Shown piece by piece: positions 47,863-59,941 of a stretch of 64,000 bases of DNA. The position numbers and the translations under genes were made by a program. Source of the DNA: Prochloraceae cyanobacterium (lineage in GTDB: Bacteria; Cyanobacteriota; Cyanobacteriia; Cyanobacteriales; JASJDA01); the NCBI GenBank assembly GCA_030065755.1, contig JASJDA010000031.1, forward strand, positions 4,000-67,999. The letters are read 5' to 3'. The notes beneath the pieces were generated by a model. It was not told the origin of the DNA, did no database searches, and saw nothing but the letters and a program-made list of their open reading frames with translations. Positions within the stretch are counted from its first letter, which is position 1. Every line of letters begins with the position of its first letter.

Positions 47863-50199
47863 ATGGTGCTGGTACGTCTAATTAAAAAACAACTTTGGCA
47901 GGATCGAAGTAATAAAACTAGACTAATTCTAGTAATAGTTTTATTGTGTCTAACCGTACGATCGCTACCCTATTTAGCCCCTATTAGCCCTAGGGATATA
48001 GAACAAGATCGACGGGCTATAGAATTTAGCGATCGCAACGGACTTCCCCTAGGTACTATACTCAGTCGCGATCGAAATCATACTGCTGTAGTTCCCCTCG
48101 ATCGAGTTTCTCCCCACTTCAAAAATGCTATTCTCGCAGCAGAAGACGGACGCTTTTACCACCACGGTGCATTAGAAATGGAAGCGATCGTGCGTGCAAT
48201 ATTTCTAGCTATTCAACACAAAAAAATTGTCAGTGGTGCTTCTACAATTACCATGCAACTAGCGCGAATGTTAGAACCAGCACCTCGCACACTTCCCAAC
48301 AAGATCGAAGAAATTTGGCGATCTTGGCGCTTAGTCGCAGGTATGAGCAAAGATGAGATACTTCATGCCTATATTAATCGATTGCCCATGGGAGGTAATA
48401 TATACGGAGTAGAAGCAGCATCCCGCGTTTATTTTGGCACACCTGCGGCTGAATTAAATATCGCTCGCTCGAGTCTACTAGCAGCCTTACCTAATAATCC
48501 TACTTATTTCAATCCTTACTATAACTGGGAACGGCTAAAACAACGACAGAAATACGTACTCGATCGCATGGTAGAAGATGGCTATATAACTCGCACCCAA
48601 GCAGATCTAGCCTATGCAGAAGAAATTACTCTTCAACCCCGCCAACAGGGAATTATAGCAGCACCTCACTTTTTATTCTGGCTAGCCGATCGACTTCCTC
48701 AAGATCGTCCTCCTCAGATACGCACCACCATCGATCGCTCCTTACAACAGTTTGTAGAAACTCAAGTAAAAGATATCGTCCGCACCCTCGCACCTCAAAA
48801 CGTCAGTCAAGCAGCAGTAGTAGTTATAGACAATCGTACCGGAGAAATATTAGCTTATGTTGGCTCGGTAGATTATTTTGCTCGAGGAGAATTAGGACGC
48901 AACGATGGAGTTCAATCTCTGCGTCAACCTGGTTCTACATTAAAACCTTTTCTCTATCAATTAGCCCTAGAAAAACGAATTATTCGCCCCAATACAGTTT
49001 TAGCTGACGTTCCCACCTATTACGCCATTCCTGGAGCCAAACTATACAGCCCTACAGATTATAGCGAAACCTTTGCAGGACCAGTAAGAGTTCGCATCGC
49101 CCTCGCCAATTCTTTAAACATTCCTGCAGTGCGAGTTTTAGAACGAGTTGGAGTAGATAAATTTCTCGATCGCCTGCACGAACTTGGTTTCGCAAACCTC
49201 GATCGAGCCCCAGAATACTACGGCTTAGGTTTATCTTTAGGTAGCGGCGAAGTCTCTCTCTGGGAATTAGCCCGTGCTTACCGCATTTTGGCACGAGAAG
49301 GGAAGATAACACCTACTATCACTACAATACCCCAATTTTCAGAATCAGGAACCCAAAACCTCTCCAAAAACTCCCCAACCTGGGGGCTAATTACCGATAT
49401 GTTAAGAGATCGTCACGCTCGTGCTTTAGCTTTTGGGGTTGACTCAGTTCTGAATTTACCTTTTCCCGTTGCAGTAAAAACAGGTACTTCCTCCAATTAC
49501 CGAGATACTTGGACAGTTGGCTACACTACTGACTACACCGTTGCTACCTGGGTCGGTAATTTCGATGGAAAACCCATGAAACAAGTTTCTGGGGTGGTGG
49601 GTGCAGCACCTCTGTGGCAGAGGATTATGTTACACTTGCACCAAGATTCTGAACCATCTGCTTTTTTTCCTCCTTCTAGGATGGTACAGCGTCCTATATG
49701 CGCCCTTTCAGGATTAAAACCCACTTCTGCTTGTCCTTCAGTAGTGCAGGAGTATTTTTATCGGGAAGACCTCAAAGATTACGAAAATAACCCAGATACT
49801 TTTTATGAAATAGTCGAGGGAAAATCTACTCAATATCGCCTCAATTTACCCCCAGAATACGACGAATGGCTAGCAATGCAACAGCGATCGACTTTTATTC
49901 CCAGTCAGCTTCAAATTTTATTTCCTCGTGACGGGGATCGTTTTTTAATAGATTCAGAAGGCGATACCACTTCGCAGTTAGAATTTAAAATTGCTGGAGC
50001 ATTAGAGTCGCCTTTAGAATTGTGGCTCAACGGCAAAAAATTAGCCACTAACTCCTCTAACTCTTTCTTTTGGGACTTGCGTCCTGGACAATGGACTCTA
50101 GAAGTGAAAAACGGTAGAGATAGCGATCGCCTTACTTTCTTTGTAGAATTAGCACCTAATCGAGCGACTCGTTGGGGTTTTTCCAGCGCCACTCCTTAA
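47863..50199 (+). CDS. pbpC: penicillin-binding protein 1C
   Basis: GT51 glycosyltransferase motif (AAEDGRFYHHG) and transpeptidase motifs STLKP and KTGTS. The C-terminal PBP1C-type extension brings the length to 778 aa. Confidence 0.88.
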   Translation: MVLVRLIKKQLWQDRSNKTRLILVIVLLCLTVRSLPYLAPISPRDIEQDRRAIEFSDRNGLPLGTILSRDRNHTAVVPLDRVSPHFKNAILAAEDGRFYHHGALEMEAIVRAIFLAIQHKKIVSGASTITMQLARMLEPAPRTLPNKIEEIWRSWRLVAGMSKDEILHAYINRLPMGGNIYGVEAASRVYFGTPAAELNIARSSLLAALPNNPTYFNPYYNWERLKQRQKYVLDRMVEDGYITRTQADLAYAEEITLQPRQQGIIAAPHFLFWLADRLPQDRPPQIRTTIDRSLQQFVETQVKDIVRTLAPQNVSQAAVVVIDNRTGEILAYVGSVDYFARGELGRNDGVQSLRQPGSTLKPFLYQLALEKRIIRPNTVLADVPTYYAIPGAKLYSPTDYSETFAGPVRVRIALANSLNIPAVRVLERVGVDKFLDRLHELGFANLDRAPEYYGLGLSLGSGEVSLWELARAYRILAREGKITPTITTIPQFSESGTQNLSKNSPTWGLITDMLRDRHARALAFGVDSVLNLPFPVAVKTGTSSNYRDTWTVGYTTDYTVATWVGNFDGKPMKQVSGVVGAAPLWQRIMLHLHQDSEPSAFFPPSRMVQRPICALSGLKPTSACPSVVQEYFYREDLKDYENNPDTFYEIVEGKSTQYRLNLPPEYDEWLAMQQRSTFIPSQLQILFPRDGDRFLIDSEGDTTSQLEFKIAGALESPLELWLNGKKLATNSSNSFFWDLRPGQWTLEVKNGRDSDRLTFFVELAPNRATRWGFSSATP

Positions 50200-50671
50200 A
50201 ATATATCTATTGCTAAATTTTTATTGATTTATATTTAGAATTTTTCCTAAGTTGAATTAATAAAATATAAACTACAGTTAAGAGCTAGGGGAGATTCTTA
50301 CATCCACTAAATAGAATTAGTTTAACTAATTAAAGTGGGTTGGTGTCAAGATATTTCGAGCTATATTGTTAAGAAAAAAAATCCAAAAAATATTAAACTA
50401 AGTAAGGTTAAAAATATTAAAAATAGAGATGTATTCGTATTTTCAACGTATCCCGATCGTTAATTAATAGTTTTTTAGAGAATGAGGAAGAATATAACAA
50501 AAAAAATTTTGTCTTTTTTCTAAAAACTAGAAAAGTTTATAAAAGTTGGAAAGAAAAACAAGTACGATATTAAAATTGCCAAAGGCGACGAAAAAAGAAT
50601 CTTCTATATAGAAAACATTAAAATAATTTAACGTCGCTTTGTCTAATTAACTCTCAAACTAATAAATTAAA

Positions 50672-52306
50672 GTGCCCATGAGTAAAGAAGTAAAAAATAT
50701 TACTAAAATACAAACTCGCCAGGAAAAAGAGCAAAGGTACGCACGAGAATATTCTCGTGCCAGAGAACGTGACGGAGAGAACTTAAGCGAAACAACTCGC
50801 GCTCGATTGTTCCAGCTACAACAAACATTAGGATTAGAAGATGGGGAGATAGCCTCAATAGAAGTAGAAATTACTGCTAGTTTTCGAGACTATCAAGAAA
50901 AATTGCAGCAATACGAACAGGCGTTGTTAGAAGCAACGAACAAAGAATTTCCTCTAAAAAAAGAAACTAGCGATCGATTGCAAAGATTTCAGAAATTTTT
51001 AAAACTTAGCGATAAAGATATTATTCCCCTTGAAGCCAGAATTATTGCTCAAAAACAACAAAGATATTTAGTAGAGATAGACACAGATAATAAAGAAAGC
51101 TTTAACGTCGCTCAACCTCAAGTAGAAAGAGATTTAGGGGCAGAAGATTCTTTTGAGATGGAAACCAATTCAGTTACTACAAGAGAGACTCTTTCCAAAC
51201 CAGAAGGACAAGTTACTTTTCTCTCAGCTTGGTTTGGCGCTGCTGTAGTAGCGATCGGCTTATTAGCCGGTGTATCTTGGTGGTTAATAGATAAACCGAA
51301 CTCTCCAAATAATCCATCTTCAATAGCTCTGAGCAAAGAAAATGGCAATATTAAAACATCTGTTCCTTCCTATACAGGACAGTATGACAAAGACTTTTTG
51401 AGCGTAAATAACGTACCTTCGGGAGAATTTGGCTATGGAGGGAGCGTCGCTTGGATGGAAATGTATAAAGTAATAGACCCCGCGATCGAAGCTGCAAGAC
51501 CGGAGTTTAAATTGCGCTACACTCTTCCTGAAAATGGCATTCCTAGCTCCAGTGCGGGTCTGCGCATGTTACTAGACGATCGAATAGCATTTGCTCATTC
51601 TTCTCGTCCCCTCCACGCTGACGAATATCAGAAAGCGTTAAAACTTGGCTATACTCTCAGCGAAATTACAGTAGCTTTAGAACCAATTGCGATCGTCGTC
51701 AATCCCAATTTAAACATTTCCGGTCTGACCCTGAGCCAATTAAAAGATATTTACACTGGTAAAATAACCAATTGGAATCAAGTTGGCGGTCCAAACCTAA
51801 AGATTATTCCCTATTCCTTTAACGCTAAAGATTCTGGCATAGCCGAGTTTTTCGAGCGCGATGTCATGGAGAGTCTTCCTTTTGGGAACAATGTTGTTTT
51901 CGTTCAGACAACTACCAATGCTTTGCGCGAGTTAGCAGCCAATCCTGGGGCTATTTACTATGCTTCAGCGCCAGAAGTAGTCGGTCAGTGCAGCATTAAA
52001 CTAGTGGCGATCGGTAACAATTCCGATCGATTAATTTCTCCCTATAGTGAGCCTCTCGTTCCAGCCTCCCAATGTCCAGAACGCCGCAATAAGATTAATA
52101 TGGCTGCCATGGAAACTGGTCAGTACCCAATCTTACAGCCCCTATTTGTGGCGGTTAAATATGACGGGAAAGTTAATCAACAAGCAGGTGAAGCATACGC
52201 TAATTTTATGTTGAGCGATCGAGGTCAGAAAATAATTAGACAAGCTGGGTTTATTCCCATTCGTTGTTTGTCTAAATTTATCGATAAATTAGACGCTTGT
52301 CACTAG
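50672..52306 (+). CDS. PstS-family (PBP_like_2) substrate-binding domain protein with an N-terminal repeat region and a TM anchor
   Basis: The C-terminal half resembles phosphate-binding protein folds (GGSVAW..., GLRMLLDDRIAFAHSSRPL, ITNWNQVGG). The N-terminus holds two similar L..L.L.D.DI..(I/L)E..I segments and one TM helix. GTG at 50672 or ATG at 50678. Confidence 0.65.
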   Translation: MPMSKEVKNITKIQTRQEKEQRYAREYSRARERDGENLSETTRARLFQLQQTLGLEDGEIASIEVEITASFRDYQEKLQQYEQALLEATNKEFPLKKETSDRLQRFQKFLKLSDKDIIPLEARIIAQKQQRYLVEIDTDNKESFNVAQPQVERDLGAEDSFEMETNSVTTRETLSKPEGQVTFLSAWFGAAVVAIGLLAGVSWWLIDKPNSPNNPSSIALSKENGNIKTSVPSYTGQYDKDFLSVNNVPSGEFGYGGSVAWMEMYKVIDPAIEAARPEFKLRYTLPENGIPSSSAGLRMLLDDRIAFAHSSRPLHADEYQKALKLGYTLSEITVALEPIAIVVNPNLNISGLTLSQLKDIYTGKITNWNQVGGPNLKIIPYSFNAKDSGIAEFFERDVMESLPFGNNVVFVQTTTNALRELAANPGAIYYASAPEVVGQCSIKLVAIGNNSDRLISPYSEPLVPASQCPERRNKINMAAMETGQYPILQPLFVAVKYDGKVNQQAGEAYANFMLSDRGQKIIRQAGFIPIRCLSKFIDKLDACH

Positions 52307-52360
52307 CCTCATTAGGAAATTTTAGTTGCATTCGATGTGATTTGAATAAAAATTCTGGGC

Positions 52361-52425
52361 AATCTAGGTATTAAGAGTGAAACATTTAGGTATTAAGAGT
52401 GAAAAATCGCCCAAATACCTAGATT
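52361..52425. promoter_or_regulatory. operator-like repeat cluster upstream of the three-gene operon
   Basis: The direct repeat TAGGTATTAAGAGTGAAA occurs at 52365-52382 and 52387-52404. A perfect 12-bp inverted pair is AATCTAGGTATT (52361-52372) and AATACCTAGATT (52414-52425). The cluster ends 22 nt before the ATG at 52448. Confidence 0.4.
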
Positions 52426-52447
52426 TATTTAACCCAGAATTAAAACA

Positions 52448-53128
52448 ATGTCAATACAAATAGAAGCTAAAAAGCAAACTCGTCTTTTACTAAATTTGTG
52501 GAATTTAGGTGGAATTGAAAAGGAAGTTAAATTAGGAGAACTTAACAAGCAAGTAAAACTGAATAAAGAAAAGGCAAAAGACTATCAAAAAATATACGAT
52601 CGATTAGAAAAAGAAGAAGCGATCGCCCTGACAAAGAAAGGTAACTCTACAAAAGTTTCTTTGACAAATAAGGGTTTGCAAATGTTAGATGCTGGAATTA
52701 AAAGTCCAGACTTTAAGTATAAGCCTACGCAAAAAGTTAGAACCAAAGATTTTAACGCTTTATTAAAGTGGATCGAGCATTTAGATATTGCAGTGAGTCC
52801 TAATAATCCTAATAATGGGAATACTAACGGCAAGCAAAGCGAAATAGTTTCTTACGAAGAATTTAAACAAGTAGCCTTGGATGTTTACGAAAAGCTAAAT
52901 AAAGGCTATAACTACGACGATTTAGTACCAATTTATCGCATCAGAAGAGAAATTGGGGAAAAGGTCGATCGAATTCAGTTTAATGAATGGCTGTTAGAAA
53001 TGCAAGCTAACGATATTTTCCAGCTTATGGAAGGTAGTGTCGAAGATAGCGCTCCAGATAAGATTGAAGATTCGATTACTACTGAACTTAGCGGACTGCG
53101 CTGTTATGCAAAGCGTTTAGTTGCATAG
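52448..53128 (+). CDS. hypothetical protein, two predicted winged-helix-like modules (gene A of the candidate system)
   Basis: The N-terminus (LLLNLWNLGG...IALTKKGNSTKVSLTNKGLQML) and the C-terminus (VPIYRIRREIGEKVDRIQFNEWLLEMQANDIFQLMEG) both look like wHTH DNA-binding modules. They are separated by an N/P-rich linker. This is inference only. Confidence 0.55.
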   Translation: MSIQIEAKKQTRLLLNLWNLGGIEKEVKLGELNKQVKLNKEKAKDYQKIYDRLEKEEAIALTKKGNSTKVSLTNKGLQMLDAGIKSPDFKYKPTQKVRTKDFNALLKWIEHLDIAVSPNNPNNGNTNGKQSEIVSYEEFKQVALDVYEKLNKGYNYDDLVPIYRIRREIGEKVDRIQFNEWLLEMQANDIFQLMEGSVEDSAPDKIEDSITTELSGLRCYAKRLVA

Positions 53129-53186
53129 ACGCAACACAACTATTTTTGCACATTTTATTCACTTAGAGAAACTTTTTGCCAAGACC

Positions 53187-54986
53187 ATGACTTTTTCTCC
53201 ATCTCAAATTCAAGACAAACAATTAGAAAATATTATTAAAAATTGTAATCCCTTCGATCGAGAAGTAATTGTTACAAAACAAGCTATTTGGAAAGAATCA
53301 TTTCCCGATGTTCCTTCTATTAATGCTGCTGCTTCCGATGCCGTTTTTAAGGCGATCGATAACGTTAGTAATGGACATCGTAAAGTTATAGGTATAACTC
53401 ATAGGGCTGAAAGAGGAGTAGGAAAAAGCCACATTATCAGTCGCATTCGCAGTCACATTAAAACTGAAGGTAATGCCTTTTTTGTTTATATGGGCGAATA
53501 TAGCGATTTAGATAAAATAAAACTCGAATTCCTCAATATTTTATGTGCAAGCCTCAAACAAGAAGGTTTTCAAGGAGTTATGCAATGGCAAGAATTAGCG
53601 GCTGCTTTGGTCAATGAAGCACTAGATAAAAAATATAACCTTCAAACGATACTTGAAGTTTTTCCTAATTGGTTTAAACAAACAAAACATAACTTAGTTA
53701 ATCAATTAACTCAACAAATTCTTGAGATTAAGTCTGACATCGAAGATCCCGATCTAATAACAGCAATTGTTTGCACACTTCACCCAACTTATAAAGCTTT
53801 TGCGATCAAGTGGCTTTCTGGCAAAAGTTTAACCACATCGAAAGCTGAAGAAATGGGATTACCTAATCCTAGTGAAGAGGAAAGAGAAGCTGAATGTTTT
53901 AGTAAAATTTGTCAGATTCTAGATGTAATTAGCAATTATAAAACAATAGTAATCTGTTTTGACGAACTAGATAGTACTGATTATTCTGAAAGTGGTTTTA
54001 CTAGGGCGCAGATAGTAGCTAGTTTCATTAAAGATTTATATAACAACATTAAACGGGGTGTTTTTCTAACAAGTATGTACCCTCAAACTTGGAGTAATCA
54101 TATTAATTCTTTACCACAAGCAGAAGCAGTTGTCGATCGCATTGGCTCACACATCATTGACCTCAAATATCTTAATTCTAATGACGTATTGACTTTAGTT
54201 TCTTGTTATTTAAAAGAGTTTTATACCGAACAAGGATTAACACCTCCTCATTCAGTTTATCCTTTTACAGAGACTCAATTAAGAACACTAGGGACAGAAA
54301 GACCCACCGTTAGAAAGGTTTTAAATTGGTGTAAGGATAAATGGAGGTCAGGTCCAATAATAGATCCACGTAAATTAGCTTATAACAATGAGCTTCAAAA
54401 TATTGAAGCAGATTTTATGGAGGATAAAGCAAAATTAGCGAAAGCAATGATTTTTGCTTTTAATAGAATAATTGGACAAAAAGTAGAAGGGGTTCAAGTA
54501 GAAAAAATTGAAACTATCCTAGAGCCTTACAATGAATATATAAACTTCAAAATTATTGGAAAAGAAAAAGGAAAAACTGTCAAAATTGGTGTGGCAATAA
54601 TGCAATCTTCCAATGGCAACAGGATTGGGGCTTGTTTAAGACATTTAAGTCAATATCAGATATACGATCTGACCCGCGGTTGTTTGGTTCGTTCTACAAG
54701 AATTAATCCTACTTCAAGAGTAGCCCGTCAAAGATTAAATGTACTTTTAAATGAAAAACGAGGAGCATGGGTCTTATTAAAAGAAGAACAAGTTAGACCT
54801 TTGATTGCCATTTATGCTGTTTATAGTGCTAGAGAAAATTATGAGTTAAGTGATCGAGAGATTTTTGAGTTTATATCTCAAAAAAAATTAGCATTAGATA
54901 ATCCTTTACTAAAAGAAATTTTGAGTAATACTTGCGGAAAAATACCTGAAAATGCAGATGATGAAGATATAGTTTATGGAAGCTAA
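53187..54986 (+). CDS. P-loop NTPase (STAND/ORC-like AAA-type), gene B of the candidate system
   Basis: Walker A AERGVGKS is at 53406-53429 and Walker B IVICFDELD at 53946-53972. The track ORF starts at an alternative TTG at 53121, overlapping gene A. The ATG at 53187 is chosen here. Confidence 0.7.
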   Translation: MTFSPSQIQDKQLENIIKNCNPFDREVIVTKQAIWKESFPDVPSINAAASDAVFKAIDNVSNGHRKVIGITHRAERGVGKSHIISRIRSHIKTEGNAFFVYMGEYSDLDKIKLEFLNILCASLKQEGFQGVMQWQELAAALVNEALDKKYNLQTILEVFPNWFKQTKHNLVNQLTQQILEIKSDIEDPDLITAIVCTLHPTYKAFAIKWLSGKSLTTSKAEEMGLPNPSEEEREAECFSKICQILDVISNYKTIVICFDELDSTDYSESGFTRAQIVASFIKDLYNNIKRGVFLTSMYPQTWSNHINSLPQAEAVVDRIGSHIIDLKYLNSNDVLTLVSCYLKEFYTEQGLTPPHSVYPFTETQLRTLGTERPTVRKVLNWCKDKWRSGPIIDPRKLAYNNELQNIEADFMEDKAKLAKAMIFAFNRIIGQKVEGVQVEKIETILEPYNEYINFKIIGKEKGKTVKIGVAIMQSSNGNRIGACLRHLSQYQIYDLTRGCLVRSTRINPTSRVARQRLNVLLNEKRGAWVLLKEEQVRPLIAIYAVYSARENYELSDREIFEFISQKKLALDNPLLKEILSNTCGKIPENADDEDIVYGS

Positions 54987-55009
54987 TTGATTTAAGGAAT
55001 ACAAGACAA

Positions 55010-56479
55010 ATGGATAATAATAGATCTATTTCCATTGCTACAGCTTTACGCTTACCAGCACCAGATATAACAGCATTAATAGAAGGTCGATCGCTGGTAG
55101 CTATATCTCGCATTTTTATCAACCCAGAAAAAACATTTGCTCTTTATCCCAGCGATACTTCTAGTAATGCTTTACCTAACCAACAATATTATCGTCCTAA
55201 TTTTCTCGATACAGCAGAAAAAGCGATCGCAGAGTTGAATGACCATACTGTTGACATTAAAGCATGGGCGAAGTGCTATAAATGTGAAATTATTAACCAA
55301 GAAGATAAGGATAGTTTTGAGATCCTGTCTCAGCTTACAGTCTGGACTGAGGATGCTTGGGAAAAAACTATATCCCAACGAGGACATATATTTTTAACTT
55401 ACCTCAGAGTGTATCCTTTACCCGAAATACTCAATATCCCTGTTTCTTCTAACTCTCGCTTCGTCTCCTTACCAATACCGATCGCACTCAGCCAAATAAA
55501 CCCAATATTAAGCGATCTCACTTTCGATCGACGCAGTCATGAGTTAGAAAACCGCATCCCACCAAAACATCCAGAATTAGAACAACTAATAAGTGGTCTT
55601 GCTCCTCTTTCAGATAATAACCTGGGTGCTAAACAACTCGATCGCAATATAAGAAACTTTCTCGGTTGGAATAATAAACAGTCCGAGTCAAATATAGACC
55701 CCGATCTAATCTGGATAGAAAGAATAGCTACAGTTGGAAACTCTAGCGACGGTAACGAGTTTGAAAAATTAGTAAGAAAAGGTTTAATTAAGTTAGGTTT
55801 TGGCAACTATAATACCAATCCTAAAGCAAGTCTCGATCCTGAAGCTACTGGAGGGGCTGGAGGAATAGATTTCTATTGCGAAACTCCTTATCCAGTAGTA
55901 GGAGAATGTAAAGCAACCCAAACAGAAACAGTCCCCAGTAGCACACCAGGACAACTAATTCAATTAGGTAACAATCATCTGGGTAGAGAGAAATACGATC
56001 GCTGTCTCAAATTAATTGTAGCGGCTGGCAGACTAACACAAGATGCACAACTTACGGCTATGAACAATCAAATAAGTGTAATTCGTCCCGAAACTTTGCA
56101 AAAATTAGTAGAAATGCAAGCAAAATATCGAAACTCGATCGATCTTTTCAAACTTAAAGAATGCTTGCAAGATGCTTATGGTTTAGCCGACGATCGAGTA
56201 GAAGAATATTTAAGAGACATCAGTCAAGAAATTGAAATAAGATCGCACATAGTCAAAGTTGTTAAAAATTATTTAGAAAATACTCAATCTAAGGATGTCG
56301 TGCTAGAAGCCATACATGGAGCTTTTGTTAATTCCAACCCACCCAAACCTTTAAACAGAGAAGAAATAAAAGACATTTTAATCGAATTATCTTCACCGCT
56401 AGCAGGATATTTAGGACGCAAAAGAGGAAGAAATGGAGCCGATCGCTTTTATTTTTTGCGAGATTTATCGATTAATTAG
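55010..56479 (+). CDS. DUF1802-like N-terminal domain fused to an Mrr-type PD-(D/E)xK restriction-endonuclease-like domain (gene C of the candidate system)
   Basis: The C-terminal half has NEFEKLVRKGLIKLGF...GGAGGIDFYCE...VVGECKA. The Asp is at 55868-55870 and E-C-K at 55904-55912. This is the Mrr_cat signature. The N-terminal ALRLPAPDITALIEGRSLVAISR...FALYPS...IFLTYLRVYPLP pattern recalls DUF1802. Confidence 0.7.
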   Translation: MDNNRSISIATALRLPAPDITALIEGRSLVAISRIFINPEKTFALYPSDTSSNALPNQQYYRPNFLDTAEKAIAELNDHTVDIKAWAKCYKCEIINQEDKDSFEILSQLTVWTEDAWEKTISQRGHIFLTYLRVYPLPEILNIPVSSNSRFVSLPIPIALSQINPILSDLTFDRRSHELENRIPPKHPELEQLISGLAPLSDNNLGAKQLDRNIRNFLGWNNKQSESNIDPDLIWIERIATVGNSSDGNEFEKLVRKGLIKLGFGNYNTNPKASLDPEATGGAGGIDFYCETPYPVVGECKATQTETVPSSTPGQLIQLGNNHLGREKYDRCLKLIVAAGRLTQDAQLTAMNNQISVIRPETLQKLVEMQAKYRNSIDLFKLKECLQDAYGLADDRVEEYLRDISQEIEIRSHIVKVVKNYLENTQSKDVVLEAIHGAFVNSNPPKPLNREEIKDILIELSSPLAGYLGRKRGRNGADRFYFLRDLSIN

Positions 56480-56595: not shown

Positions 56596-57330
56596 TCAGT
56601 TTCCAATTATCCATTTAAAAGCACTGTCAACATCAGTAACGCGATCGCCTTCTGGCATTATGGGACGTTTAATGATGACTGCAGGTAAACCCAGTTCTCT
56701 AGCAGCAATTATCTTGGCAATTGTTGCTTCACCACCGCTATTTTTGCTAACAATTGCCTCGATCTGGTATTTTTTTAACAACTGGCGCTCTTCTGTTAAA
56801 TCAAAAGGGCCTCTTTCCAATAATAAATGTCCCTTGGGAATTGGTTTATCGGATGCTGGAGGTTCGATCGTTCGCATCAGAAACCAAATATCCTCTAAAT
56901 AACTAAAAGCAGCTAATTCTTGTCTGCCAATAGCCAGAAAGACTCGCTTTGCCAAACCTGGAAGTACGGCTACAGCAGCTTTAAAGTCATTTACTTCAAT
57001 CCAGCGATCGCCTTTTATTGGTTGCCATGGGGGACGCACTAACATTAAATGGGGAATACCACAGATTTTTGCTGCTATAGCCCCATTAAAGGAAATTTGT
57101 GCTGCAAAAGGATGGGTCGCGTCAATAAGTAGAGCGATCGCATTATTTCGTAGATAAGTCACTAAGCCTTCTGTTCCGCTAAAACCTCCTATTCTAGTGG
57201 GTACGTGAATCTTGGCTGGCTGACTAGTTCTACCTGCTAGAGAAACAATAACTTCTATTCCCTCAATAGTTGAAGCTTTAACAGCTAATTGAGAAGCCTC
57301 TGTGGTTCCACCCAAGATTAAAACTCGCAT
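56596..57330 (-). CDS. cobK: precorrin-6A / cobalt-precorrin-6A reductase
   Basis: MRVLILGGTTEA start, a length of 244 aa, and a CobK/CbiJ-like sequence throughout. Confidence 0.85.
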   Translation of the reverse strand: MRVLILGGTTEASQLAVKASTIEGIEVIVSLAGRTSQPAKIHVPTRIGGFSGTEGLVTYLRNNAIALLIDATHPFAAQISFNGAIAAKICGIPHLMLVRPPWQPIKGDRWIEVNDFKAAVAVLPGLAKRVFLAIGRQELAAFSYLEDIWFLMRTIEPPASDKPIPKGHLLLERGPFDLTEERQLLKKYQIEAIVSKNSGGEATIAKIIAARELGLPAVIIKRPIMPEGDRVTDVDSAFKWIIGN

Positions 57331-57339
57331 TATTTATCT

Positions 57340-58757
57340 TCTTCCCGCGAGAATACCCACGCTTTCAGCGTGTGGATGAATCGCAGGGCAGCCCTTTTAG
57401 TATTATCTTTAATCTTACAGAAAGCTATGTTAAAATGTAAGTTGTAAATAACTAACTATTGTAAGGGATGTTTTTTATTTTTAATTAGGGAACCCTTTTT
57501 CAAATAATTATTTTCCGTAAATGACCGAACGCGCCTACAAATATCGGTTTTACCCAACTCCAGAGCAAGAAAATCTCTTGCGACGGACGATAGGTTGCGT
57601 TCGTTTGGTTTACAACAAAGCTTTGGCAACTAGAACTGAAGCATGGTACTCCAAAAAAGAGAGGGTCGGCTACAAAGAAACCTCTAGTTTTTTGACTGCT
57701 TGGAAAAAGACTACTGAACTTAACTTTCTTAACGAGGTAAGCTCTGTACCCTTGCAGCAATGCCTTAGAAATCTGCAAAAAGCATTTGCTAACTTCTGGG
57801 GAAAGAGAGCTAGATATCCTCGGTTTAAGAAAAAGCGCTCGGGGGGGTCGGCTGAGTTTACCAAGTCTGCATTTAAATGGAAAGATGGTAAATTGTGGCT
57901 TGCTAAGTGTAAGGAACCACTCAATATAGTCTGGTCTAGATATTTGCCTGATGCTTGTGCCCCATCTACAGTAACAGTCAAATTCGAGCCATCGGGAAGA
58001 TGGTATATTTCTTTGCTGATAAATGACCGAACCATTGAGAAATTCCCACCAACTGACAAGAAAGTTGGCATTGATGTAGGTATTTCTCGATTGATTAGTA
58101 CCAGCGACGGGGATTTGATAGCTAATCCCAAGCATTTCAATCGGCTGTATCAAAAGCTTAAAAGAGCGCAAAAGGTATTGAGTCGGAAGACCAAAGGCTC
58201 TAATAATCGACATAAAGCGCTACAGATAGTAGCTAAGATACACACTCAAATCAAAGATGCTCGTACCGATTTCCTGCACAAGTTGACTACTTCGTTGGTT
58301 AGAGAAAATAGCCTTATTGCTATTGAAGACTTGGGGGTTAGAAACATGGTTAAACTCCGCAAGTTGGCTCGGTCTATATCCGATGCTGCTTGGGGGGAGA
58401 TGTTTCGTCAACTTGAGTATAAGTGTGAGTGGTACGGGCGAGAATTGGTTAAAATTGACCGATTCTATCCCAGCAGTAAAAGATGTAATCAATGTGGTTT
58501 TGTAGTCGCTCGATTGCCCCTCGACGTTCGCAGTTGGGATTGCCCTAGCTGTGGAACTACAGGCATAGACCGCGACATCAATGCTGGAAAAAATATCTTG
58601 GCTGCAGGGCTTGCAGTTTCTGTCTGTGGAGCGGACATAAGACCTGATAACCATAGTGTTAAAGGGCAGTTGCGAAAAACTCGTACATCGAGAAGGAAAC
58701 AGAAACCCAGATCGTGAGGTTTGGGAATCCCGCGTCAAGGAGCGCGGGAGGATGTCA
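57340..58757 (+). mobile_element. IS200/IS605-family tnpB-only element (IS1341-like), 1418 bp by inferred boundaries
   Basis: The left end has a subterminal hairpin CCACGC-TTTCA-GCGTGTGG followed by GATGAATCGC. The right end is GAATCCCGCG-TCAAGGAG-CGCGGGAGGATGTCA (58725-58757). Boundaries were set by comparison with the 21325-21791 copy. No tnpA is present. Confidence 0.7.
57521..58717 (+). CDS. tnpB: RNA-guided DNA endonuclease TnpB (IS605 OrfB family)
   Basis: N-terminal YKYRFYPTPEQENLLRRTIGCVRLVYN (OrfB HTH). The RuvC triad contexts are GIDVGI, IAIEDL and DRDINAGKNI. The zinc ribbon is CNQCG...CPSCG. Confidence 0.92.
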   Translation: MTERAYKYRFYPTPEQENLLRRTIGCVRLVYNKALATRTEAWYSKKERVGYKETSSFLTAWKKTTELNFLNEVSSVPLQQCLRNLQKAFANFWGKRARYPRFKKKRSGGSAEFTKSAFKWKDGKLWLAKCKEPLNIVWSRYLPDACAPSTVTVKFEPSGRWYISLLINDRTIEKFPPTDKKVGIDVGISRLISTSDGDLIANPKHFNRLYQKLKRAQKVLSRKTKGSNNRHKALQIVAKIHTQIKDARTDFLHKLTTSLVRENSLIAIEDLGVRNMVKLRKLARSISDAAWGEMFRQLEYKCEWYGRELVKIDRFYPSSKRCNQCGFVVARLPLDVRSWDCPSCGTTGIDRDINAGKNILAAGLAVSVCGADIRPDNHSVKGQLRKTRTSRRKQKPRS

Positions 58758-58843: not shown

Positions 58844-59941
58844 ATGGCTCGTAAAGGTTACACCTTATCTGTTTTTGCTGTTGCTGCTGCTAAAGCTGCT
58901 TTGCTGCATCTACAAGAGAAAATGAATTCCGAACCAGTAGTGTGTCTCGATCTGCTACCAGAAAGCGCAGAGATACCCATTCAGCAGCTAGCTATTTTAG
59001 ATTCTACTAGTGCTTTGGCAATTACTACTAGCGATCCAGGTGATAATTTAGATCTAACTCGCAATACACCAATTTGGGCGTTGGTTAGGACGAGCGATCG
59101 CGTTTCTGATGCTTTAATTCTAGAAGCTGGTGAGGGTTTGGGTAAAACAGTAACGGGAGATCCTGCTATTTATAGTTTTGCTCGTCGCTTATTTGAGGCT
59201 AATTTATTACCAATAATTCCTGCAGATAAAACTGTAACGGTTTCAATTATTTTGCCTTTCGGTCGTCAACTGGCTCAACGGACTTCAAACGAAGCATTTG
59301 GCATTCTCGAAGGACTTGCTTTACTTGGAACTAGCGGTATATCTCAACCTCTATCGGCAGCCGATCGTCTAGAAGAATTTCGCCTAGATCTGCAGAATAA
59401 AGTAAAAGATCGCTCAAATCTAGTATTTTCTATTGGTAGCAATGGCGTGCGCGTTGCTCAAAAATTAAGTATTCCAGAAGAAACCATCGTCCAAACTGGT
59501 AATTGGATTGGTGCAATGCTGGTAGAAGCTGGGTTACGGGGTGCTAATTCAGTGCTTTTGCTTGGCTATCAGGGTAAGTTAATCAAGCTAGCTGGCGGAA
59601 TTTTTAATACGTCCAGTCATTTAGCCGATGCCAAACTAGAAATTATTAGTGCTGCTGTTGCTTCTGTTGGTGGCGATCGCAATGCGATTAAAAGTGTCTT
59701 GGCTGCGCAAACTGCAGATTCGGCTTATAAAACACTAGTGCAATTACAATTAGCTGAGTCAGTTTTTACATTACTAGCAGATAAAATTAGTCACAAAGCT
59801 ACTGCTTACGTTCAAAAGTATGCCGATGTATCTCTAAAAATAGGTACTATTCTCTTCGATCGTCAGGGTCACATTATTGTTAGAGATGCAATAGCCAAGG
59901 AACTGATAAATAAGTTGACGCGACCCGATAAAAAGAAATAA
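58844..59941 (+). CDS. cbiD: cobalt-precorrin-5B (C1)-methyltransferase
   Basis: GYTLSVFAVAAAKAALLHL N-terminus, GLALLGTSGI, and a CbiD-like length of 365 aa. Confidence 0.85.
   Translation: MARKGYTLSVFAVAAAKAALLHLQEKMNSEPVVCLDLLPESAEIPIQQLAILDSTSALAITTSDPGDNLDLTRNTPIWALVRTSDRVSDALILEAGEGLGKTVTGDPAIYSFARRLFEANLLPIIPADKTVTVSIILPFGRQLAQRTSNEAFGILEGLALLGTSGISQPLSAADRLEEFRLDLQNKVKDRSNLVFSIGSNGVRVAQKLSIPEETIVQTGNWIGAMLVEAGLRGANSVLLLGYQGKLIKLAGGIFNTSSHLADAKLEIISAAVASVGGDRNAIKSVLAAQTADSAYKTLVQLQLAESVFTLLADKISHKATAYVQKYADVSLKIGTILFDRQGHIIVRDAIAKELINKLTRPDKKK

Follow-up and report, generated by a model that had tools for sequence, protein, structure and literature searches.

Fusions of a reader domain of the PUA superfamily to a nuclease are established modification-dependent restriction enzymes (PMC6765204, PMC7641849). 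Here, we describe a protein of comparable layout from a Prochloraceae cyanobacterium, which is encoded by gene C, the last gene of a three-gene cassette, A-B-C, located in a 64,000-nucleotide (nt) stretch of a metagenome-assembled genome (MAG; GenBank assembly GCA_030065755.1, contig JASJDA010000031.1, positions 4,000 to 67,999), hereafter called the window. The product of gene C is identical to MDJ0714131.1, annotated by NCBI as 'DUF1802 family protein' of the Prochloraceae cyanobacterium MAG. It comprises a DUF1802 domain with a predicted ASCH/PUA-like fold, an Mrr-type nuclease core, and a C-terminal winged helix. Based on the logic of these domains and on the evolutionary behaviour of the cassette, rather than on its genomic context, we somewhat favour the view that A-B-C is an NTPase-controlled, restriction-like defence system, restricted to cyanobacteria, in which C would be the nuclease effector.

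With regard to the MspJI family (PMC6765204), the gene C product is alike in that an N-terminal beta-barrel of the PUA superfamily and a C-terminal PD-(D/E)xK nuclease are carried on one polypeptide, with no cognate methyltransferase. Nevertheless, the reader of gene C is ASCH-like and not SRA-, EVE- or YTH-like, the two show no sequence similarity, and gene C adds a helical region and a winged helix and co-occurs with genes for a P-loop NTPase and a winged-helix protein. MspJI itself (4f0p) is a weak Foldseek match of the whole protein (probability 0.72, TM-score ~0.2). More generally, gene C resembles the type IV enzymes as a reader joined to a nuclease without a cognate methyltransferase, a likeness of domain architecture alone. 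With Mrr, gene C shares the nuclease family as detected by hidden Markov model (HMM; 27/73 members), the D...(E/Q)xK pattern, the combination of a nuclease with a winged helix, and the viral matches named 'type IV Mrr domain'. In contrast, the domain order is reversed, as the winged helix of Mrr is N-terminal, and gene C has an additional ASCH-like domain, partner genes encoding an NTPase and a winged-helix protein, and a score for Mrr_cat that remains below the cut-off. As in McrBC (PMC7641849), a reader, an NTPase, and a PD-(D/E)xK nuclease are encoded together, and the reader is variable and exchangeable; unlike in McrBC, the reader is located on the nuclease subunit instead of the NTPase, a third, winged-helix protein is present, and there is no PADLOC match. 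Gene B has no Pfam match to the McrB-type AAA_5 and is KAP/AAA_16-like, not an AAA+ GTPase of the McrB type.

The modular organization of gene C is apparent in the AlphaFold2 model of the full-length protein (mean predicted local distance difference test score, pLDDT, 93.8; predicted TM-score, pTM, 0.77), for which an alignment of 73 diverse family representatives, 30-81% identical to the gene C protein, was used as input. The model exhibits three modules, namely an N-terminal mixed barrel, an alpha-beta-beta-beta-alpha-beta core, and a set of helices with a winged helix. When the model was compared with the PDB by Foldseek, separate parts matched separate folds; among viral structures, the matches were annotated as 'Restriction endonuclease', 'type IV Mrr domain-containing protein', and 'ASCH domain containing protein'. 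We are highly confident in the resulting domain assignments. A sequence search of the PDB with gene C as single query gave no match, and the PHROGs scan gave noise-level matches only. The family profile yielded one marginal PDB match, to the helix-turn-helix region of Noc/ParB (E=0.05), which was rejected because the aligned part of C is mostly beta-strand in the confident model.

A first-pass annotation, made from the sequence alone, had recognised a DUF1802 domain in the N-terminal part of the protein, and the Pfam scan confirmed it: DUF1802 (PF08819) matches amino acids (aa) 12-177 with 98.8 bits (gathering score 25, E=4.1e-28), covering model positions 1-173 of 174, and 73/73 homologues match this domain as well. 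A fold of the PUA/ASCH type, to which the same annotation had pointed, is also what the structural comparison indicates, with a specific likeness to ASCH. The AlphaFold2 model of the N-domain alone reached a pLDDT of 95.8 and a pTM of 0.91, and its first ~20 Foldseek matches in the PDB are all ASCH-superfamily proteins (best E=2.9e-4), with a probability of 0.97-1.0 for most of them and TM-scores of 0.35-0.63 (target-normalised 0.42-0.63). The matches include TRIP4 with and without double-stranded DNA (dsDNA), EOLA1/CXorf40A, ZmASCH, TTHA0113, AF2351, and DUF984, with YqfB lower down; a viral ASCH protein matches with a probability of 1.0, and the EVE domain 2eve is a poor match (probability 0.07). 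An ASCH/PUA-like fold is thus supported for DUF1802 by the model, at the level of the fold only. At the sequence level, gene C has no match to Pfam ASCH at E<=1, and the family profile retrieves no ASCH chain from the PDB at E<=10.

Compared with the ASCH superfamily (TRIP4/ASC-1, EOLA1, ZmASCH, TTHA0113, YqfB), DUF1802 shares the predicted fold and retains the topology of strand 1, helix 1, and Gly, but it is ~40 residues larger, lacks sequence similarity, and has lost the catalytic K, E/T, and R. DUF1802 does not retain the ASCH octapeptide, GxKxx[E/T/S]xR: at positions 26-33, which correspond to it in topology, the G is found in 70/73 sequences, the K in 0/73, E/T/S in 7/73 (Ala in 43/73), and the R in 0/73. 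In ASCH proteins, the Lys and the Glu/Thr of the octapeptide are reported to be essential for deacetylase activity (bioRxiv 10.64898/2026.02.27.708502). DUF1802 has a conserved set of its own, comprising G26, W86, A87, C89, C92, T110, W112, F128, R133, Y135, and F172. As the catalytic residues of ASCH are absent, we read DUF1802 as a binding domain rather than an enzyme, and it is probably a binding module. Several ASCH proteins bind single-stranded DNA or dsDNA (bioRxiv 10.64898/2026.02.27.708502), and the ASCH domain of TRIP4, which has been crystallised on dsDNA (PDB 8yfj, 9kyl), is among the matches of the N-domain. Within the motif WAKCYKC (aa 86-92, window 55265-55285), C89 and C92 lie on one strand, adjoin the nearly invariant W86-A87, and are kept in 55/73 and 54/73 sequences, respectively; they may serve in metal binding, in redox chemistry, or in the structure.

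Judging from its sequence, the nuclease of gene C is a divergent Mrr-type PD-(D/E)xK enzyme with an intact putative E...D...ExK...Q site. The gene C sequence matches Mrr_cat (PF04471) over aa 246-366 with 15.6 bits (E=0.018), which is below the cut-off of 21, so membership in this family is established through the homologues and the motif, and not from gene C by itself. Individually, 27/73 family members match Mrr_cat at E<=0.01 (best E=1.8e-6), and two homologues, P0050 (32.2 bits) and P0136 (28.3 bits), exceed the cut-off. The candidate catalytic residues are conserved, with E252 in 70/73 sequences, D287 in 71/73, E299 in 70/73, K301 in 70/73, and Q315 in 57/73 (E in 13 others), in agreement with the Mrr-type nuclease that the first-pass annotation had proposed. 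In the model, the core (aa 248-358, pLDDT >87) comprises a helix (248-262), two strands (288-290 and 296-301), a helix (311-324), a strand (333-338), a helix (344-352), and a strand (355-358), and this predicted order corresponds to the alpha-beta-beta-beta-alpha-beta core of PD-(D/E)xK enzymes. By Foldseek, this part matches viral restriction endonuclease and Mrr-domain proteins (probability 0.98-0.99), as well as RPB5, whose N-domain has a restriction-endonuclease-like fold.

The last ~200 aa had been attributed to the nuclease, with a helical tail after it. The tail is indeed present and is more structured than anticipated, since it contains a winged helix, but the nuclease itself only extends over approximately aa 244-360. 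After the nuclease, the model shows helices between aa 360 and 425, followed by a helix-helix-helix-strand-strand unit at aa 432-482. This tail matches the winged helices of Cdt1, Orc/Cdc6, and Zur by Foldseek (probability 0.97-1.0), and the winged helix bears the most conserved motif of the family, ELSSPLxGYLGR...DRFYFLRDL (LIELSSPLAGYLGR...DRFYFLRD). It also stays with the nuclease in fusion proteins in which the nuclease is joined to a B homologue or to a ParB_N domain. The linker that separates the DUF1802 domain from the nuclease, made up of two helices in the model, varies more across the family than any other part, yet it is 87-94% identical among three paralogues of one genome.

The combination of DUF1802 with a nuclease had been regarded as an unusual fusion, related to small cyanobacterial DUF1802 proteins. 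Neither point could be upheld. The DUF1802-nuclease-winged-helix protein of ~480 aa is the canonical form of the family, both in the best 120 homologues, which are all 454-685 aa long and nearly all cover 97-100% of the query (the exception being P0050, with 82%), and in 73/73 representatives, and 2037 matches were obtained. An exhaustive search of 1.84 billion representatives gave only 241 clusters at 50% identity, of which most are full-length and the others are fragments; the family is found in cyanobacteria only. When the N-domain sequence and profile were used to look for DUF1802 proteins that stand alone, only fragments and deletion remnants were returned, and such proteins were rejected as a class: among 5.8 billion proteins, the profile found just 21 short ones, mostly partial gene calls. 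The lone complete example, the 200-aa P0121, is a gene C with an internal deletion, located behind homologues of A and B, and tblastn at its locus recovers aa 1-201 of C followed by aa 422-489 in another reading frame. At L049 (5001-5806; also at L050 and L051), the deletion comprises aa ~202-421 of C, including the nuclease, and leaves the tail out of frame and the upstream A and B intact. The DUF1802 domain therefore occurs essentially only in the DUF1802-nuclease-winged-helix architecture. This bare architecture is not new, as the family and its Pfam label are present in databases and both Pfam domains are annotated in some members in precomputed annotation.

The first-pass annotation had proposed gene B as the functional partner of C, and synteny, gene fusions, and the erosion of active sites in the absence of A and B all speak for this proposal. 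The order A-B-C is kept in ~30/43 loci from diverse cyanobacteria, with flanking genes that vary by lineage, and the gene A homologues found upstream of B-C in ~30 loci are 38-79% identical. In three distinct clusters of ~895-aa proteins, a B homologue is fused to the nuclease and winged-helix module of C, without DUF1802. One of these fusion proteins, P0157, aligns with B over 607 aa at 44% identity (E=3e-163) and with aa 233-488 of C at 65% identity, and it is still preceded by an A homologue (56% identity). Conversely, nine orphan C genes of Laspinema/Oscillatoria, which stand without A or B, have eroded active sites, E252 being replaced by A/V in 8/9, E299 by Q in 9/9, and K301 by other residues (R, N, N, S) in 4/9. 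The C copies borne by cassettes, in contrast, keep E-D-E-K. The orphan genes are intact open reading frames (ORFs) that retain most conserved residues of the N-domain, and they may be domesticated or decaying copies. Taken together, a functional coupling between B and C is very likely, and C is probably physically coupled to B and A.

The orphan C loci (L029, L032-L038, and L043, e.g. L035 7911-9422) place the gene between lipA/gpsA-like genes and an ADP-ribosylglycohydrolase gene. The adjacency to the latter, seen in 8 loci, is uninformative because all of them come from one clade. In metagenome contigs (L045-L048), a 565-aa protein, P0263, joins ParB_N to a C-type nuclease and winged-helix module; it is located in an island with many toxin-antitoxin pairs, including PIN/DUF2281, YoeB/ParE-like, and DUF433/DUF5615. 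The same module is also found fused to TPR repeats, where an artefact of gene calling is possible.

Tandem paralogues of one genome are mosaics. Oscillatoria sp. PCC 10802 carries three tandem A-B-C cassettes (L008 263-14063, NZ_KB235952.1), all with E-D-E-K-Q. Cassettes 2 and 3 are ~90% identical, and the second A gene contains a stretch of N. Cassette 1 is 67-89% identical to the others in the ASCH-like domain and linker, whereas identity is only 33-40% in the nuclease and helical region and 48-50% in B; between the first and second C, the values are 70% for the ASCH-like domain, 87% for the linker, 40% for the nuclease, and 33% for the helical region. A different pattern is observed between the window and its closest relative (L042/L017), where identity amounts to 79% for A and ~76% for C and falls to 41% for B; the B in this comparison is closest to that of a Xenococcaceae genome (62%). 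Judging from these identities, components have evidently been exchanged between cassettes. A strict co-evolution of the C nuclease with B, which the PCC 10802 paralogues would suggest, is contradicted by L042, with its values of ~76% for C and 41% for B, and we therefore claim modular exchange alone. Across the family, the mean pairwise identity is 0.30 for the reader domain, 0.45 for the nuclease, and 0.43 for the winged helix. Tandem paralogues, exchange, decayed copies, re-use of modules, a fast-evolving reader, and the lowered GC content of the cassette region in the window are traits of accessory, conflict-type genes. Two further loci show irregular genes: at L026 1212-2956 (a MAG of Oscillatoria sp. 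Prado101), the B homologue is distributed over three frames, as a pseudogene or through an error in the MAG assembly, and at L016 5954-6346 (Aerosakkonema sp.), a second, isolated part of C, corresponding to aa 358-488, lies ~600 nt downstream of a complete C.

The features of the cassette are listed in Table 1.

Table 1 Features of the A-B-C cassette (positions are those of the 64,000-nt window)
Feature	Position	Strand	Description
Repeat upstream of gene A	52361..52425	+	AATCTAGGTATT core in three copies (22-nt tandem direct repeat with an additional inverted copy); distance to gene A, 23 nt
Gene A	52448..53128	+	226 aa, first cassette gene; predicted DNA-binding; NCBI MDJ0714129.1
Gene B	53187..54986	+	599 aa from ATG 53187; P-loop NTPase, KAP/AAA_16/STAND-like; NCBI MDJ0714130.1
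Gene B, Walker A	53406-53429	+	AERGVGKS
Gene B, Walker B	53946-53972	+	IVICFDELD
Gene B, C-terminal motif	~54669-54698	+	TRGCLVRS
Gene C	55010..56479	+	489 aa, ATG to TAG; DUF1802 family protein
DUF1802 domain	55028..55549	+	aa 7-180 of gene C; predicted ASCH/PUA-like beta-barrel (Pfam, AlphaFold2, Foldseek)
Helical linker	55550..55738	+	aa 181-243 of gene C (model)
Nuclease core	55739..56089	+	aa 244-360 of gene C; Mrr-type PD-(D/E)xK (HMM, conservation, model)
E252	55763-55765	+	Catalytic candidate
D287	55868-55870	+	Catalytic candidate
E299	55904-55906	+	Catalytic candidate
K301	55910-55912	+	Catalytic candidate
Q315	55952-55954	+	Catalytic candidate
Helical region	56090..56293	+	aa 361-428 of gene C, long helix aa 394-425 (model)
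C-terminal winged helix	56294..56464	+	aa 429-485 of gene C (conservation, model, Foldseek)

The spacers of the cassette are short, with 58 nt between A and B and 23 nt between B and C. Gene A has a predicted N-terminal winged helix with weak matches only (DUF6293_C, E=0.004; PADLOC CARF-associated wHTH, E=0.006) and a highly conserved C-terminal domain (VPIYRIRREIG...MQA), with 35 invariant columns among 12 diverse sequences. Homology of this C-terminal domain to the winged-helix tail of gene C was considered and rejected (hhalign probability 0.2). With regard to gene B, the Walker A and B motifs are conserved and the C-terminal TRGCLVRS is invariant among 21 homologues. Gene B matches KAP_NTPase (PF07693) with 26.8 bits, above the cut-off of 20, with a partial coverage of model positions 4-165 of 293, and stays below the cut-off for AAA_16, NPHP3_N, and AAA_22. 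Many KAP NTPases have transmembrane inserts. Searches of the PDB with the sequences and profiles of genes A and B gave nothing informative. The ORF of gene B, as called mechanically, begins with the TTG at 53121, and its first 8 nt lie within gene A. We assigned the start to the ATG at 53187 (Met23) because homologues have stops upstream of it, conservation begins at this Met, and the NCBI product has 599 aa. In-frame stops in B homologues, which could have indicated pseudogenes or recoding, precede the true start, and this idea was dropped.

The 22-nt tandem repeat units upstream of gene A are ATCTAGGTATTAAGAGTGAAAC and ATTTAGGTATTAAGAGTGAAAA. The repeat is a possible operator to which the winged-helix protein A could bind. 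Its conservation as an operator was rejected, since the regions preceding gene A in 30 other loci show no comparable repeat.

That no described system corresponds to the cassette, as the first-pass annotation had surmised, agrees with our searches: gene C has no PADLOC or NCBIfam match, and we found no paper on DUF1802 in the searchable literature, the sole full-text match being apparently unrelated, according to its title and abstract. Several results of this kind, however, also count against a role in defence. None of A, B, and C matches a PADLOC v2 model at threshold, and A only reaches the noise-level wHTH match. In NCBIfam, gene B obtains 34 bits with DS41_1_antiphage, for a cut-off of 370, and 32.7 bits with a Sll1717-family ATPase model, for a cut-off of 75. 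DS-41 is a single-gene system from E. coli ('AAA2') identified by DefensePredictor (PMC13092281), and it was rejected as the identity of gene B, whose score is far below the model cut-off. Searches of 72,556 plasmids, of 50,697 phage records, and of IMG/VR contigs did not reveal any copy. Within Microcoleus, the cassette has one syntenic site, which suggests stable vertical inheritance. Moreover, a defence island is not apparent around it: in the window as in other genomes, most neighbours have housekeeping functions, and a scan of 20 representative flanking genes gave no support for such a context. The existence of fusions of B to the nuclease without DUF1802 also weighs on this side, as it implies that the reader is dispensable in some variants, and so does the fact that the likeness of DUF1802 to ASCH is confined to the fold (TM-scores 0.35-0.63; no ASCH chain by profile). 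Furthermore, cyanobacterial genomes are heavily methylated, which would make a simple methyl-base target awkward.

In the window, the neighbours of the cassette encode a penicillin-binding-type protein and a solute-binding protein, along with a cobK-like gene; genes that are presumably cbiD-like are also located nearby. Elsewhere, the flanking genes encode rhodanese, NUDIX, GGDEF/EAL, Band 7, chorismate synthase, desaturase, and P450 proteins, and occasionally Uma2 or an Eco57I-type methylase. The whole cassette consists of A, B, and C, without a methyltransferase, and one was found nearby at a single examined locus only (L003). The GC content is 0.35-0.36 at 52-56 kb, for a window average of ~0.40. 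Over 50001-56000, which comprises the gene for the solute-binding protein and A-B-C, it is 0.35-0.37, and in the adjoining 48-50 kb it is 0.446; the low GC content of 50001-56000 is compatible with horizontal acquisition. Downstream, an ORF of 398 aa (57521-58717, +), which resembles a TnpB of the IS200/IS605 family, is located between what are presumably a cobK-like gene (56596-57330, -) and a cbiD-like gene (58844-59941, +). Long antisense ORFs overlap this 398-aa ORF, and a partial relative is found in L009.

According to the restriction-like reading that we favour, the ASCH-like domain would bind nucleic acid and position or license the nuclease, without any catalysis of its own, its candidate ligands being modified bases, DNA ends, and unusual structures. 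The nuclease and winged-helix module would dock on B, and the binding or hydrolysis of NTP by B would gate or drive cleavage, while A would either recognise DNA or repress or otherwise regulate the operon. As the cassette comprises no methyltransferase, self-DNA would be spared by the specificity of the reader, as in type IV systems, or by B holding the nuclease off. That the ASCH-like domain reads a modified base is conceivable, although we regard it as rather doubtful. With still more reserve, the degenerate ASCH-like domain can be imagined as the sensor of an immune system particular to cyanobacteria, responding to a hypermodified phage base or to a free modified nucleotide, which would license the nuclease only once the dedicated KAP/STAND-like NTPase is engaged; the catalytically dead Laspinema orphans would then be domesticated DNA-binding proteins. 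Recognition of a free modified nucleotide that is released during infection has been reported for a PUA-Cal-HAD system (bioRxiv 10.64898/2026.01.15.699771).

Part of the evidence can also be accommodated by other explanations. The cassette may mediate abortive infection of the STAND/Avs type, in which B would sense a phage cue, oligomerise, and switch on indiscriminate DNA degradation by C, and the ASCH-like domain would serve as a general DNA clamp or as an auto-inhibitory module. The association of a P-loop NTPase with an Mrr-like PD-(D/E)xK effector is common to both, and the single-chain fusions of B to the nuclease, without DUF1802, have the domain content of Avs-type proteins. In addition, B is large (599 aa), has a conserved C-terminal domain outside the NTPase, shows weak matches to the STAND-like families AAA_16, NPHP3_N (NACHT-like), and KAP, and shows the fastest divergence or exchange of the three components, as expected for a sensor. 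Nevertheless, all matches of B to STAND-type Pfam families are below the cut-off, PADLOC finds no Avs, the nuclease is C-terminal in the fusions whereas it is N-terminal in Avs1-3, and B and C are usually encoded by separate genes. A mechanism of this type would also leave the ASCH-like domain, conserved in 73/73 sequences, and the role of A unexplained, and we consider it unlikely. Housekeeping DNA processing, i.e. repair, recombination, or chromosome maintenance in mostly filamentous cyanobacteria, with C as a structure-specific nuclease guided by A and B, would agree with a chromosomal location among housekeeping flanks, with synteny across Microcoleus, with the lack of plasmid and phage copies, and with the intact orphan ORFs at a conserved Laspinema site. 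Still, the family comprises no more than 241 clusters at 50% identity among 1.84 billion representatives, and no standard laboratory model strain is recognisable by name among the named best matches, which suggests a patchy distribution. The position of the cassette varies between lineages, and tandem triplication, component swaps, deletions, frameshifts, and erosion of the site would be unusual for a core function, so that this explanation appears improbable.

Two other possibilities deserve considerably less credence. DUF1802 could be an active ASCH enzyme, either an N4-acetylcytidine (ac4C) amidohydrolase or an ASCH ribonuclease (RNase), in which case the protein would act on RNA, e.g. tRNA. 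The matches to YqfB, TthASCH/TTHA0113, EOLA1, TRIP4, and ZmASCH, which include reported ac4C deacetylases or RNases, would be in line with this, ASCH proteins having been reported with either activity (bioRxiv 10.64898/2026.02.27.708502; PMC7641849 reference 14). The loss of the octapeptide, with the essential Lys in 0/73 sequences, Ala at the E/T/S position in 43/73, and the Arg in 0/73, together with the fusion to a winged helix and an Mrr nuclease of the DNA type, makes such an activity very improbable. Equally hard to credit is a selfish, toxin-antitoxin-like addiction module, in which C would be a toxic nuclease restrained by A and/or B and the cassette would persist because its loss kills the cell. 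The orphan C genes have inactivated catalytic sites, as if an unguarded nuclease were toxic, a ParB_N relative is located in a toxin-antitoxin island, and the cassette is compact, with short spacers. On the other hand, no copy was detected on a plasmid or another mobile element, a module of three large proteins would be atypical of toxin-antitoxin systems, and the loci L049-51 still have A and B but no longer the nuclease, the opposite of what dependence on an antitoxin predicts.

With respect to the libraries searched, the ASCH-like fold of DUF1802, the winged-helix tail, and the A-B-C cassette with its variants appear to be new, as does the link between the loss of the partners and the erosion of the active site. 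The analysis offers a hypothesis on both the structure and the function of an uncharacterised Pfam domain and draws attention to a cassette that standard defence-annotation libraries overlook. The fusions, the eroded orphans, and the mosaic tandem paralogues lead to testable predictions on how the modules interact and on what cleavage needs. If the ASCH-like domain does read a specific DNA modification, the enzyme could be useful as a modification-dependent nuclease tool, in the manner of MspJI. The cassette belongs to cyanobacteria, a group in which defence against phages is ecologically important and has been comparatively little explored.

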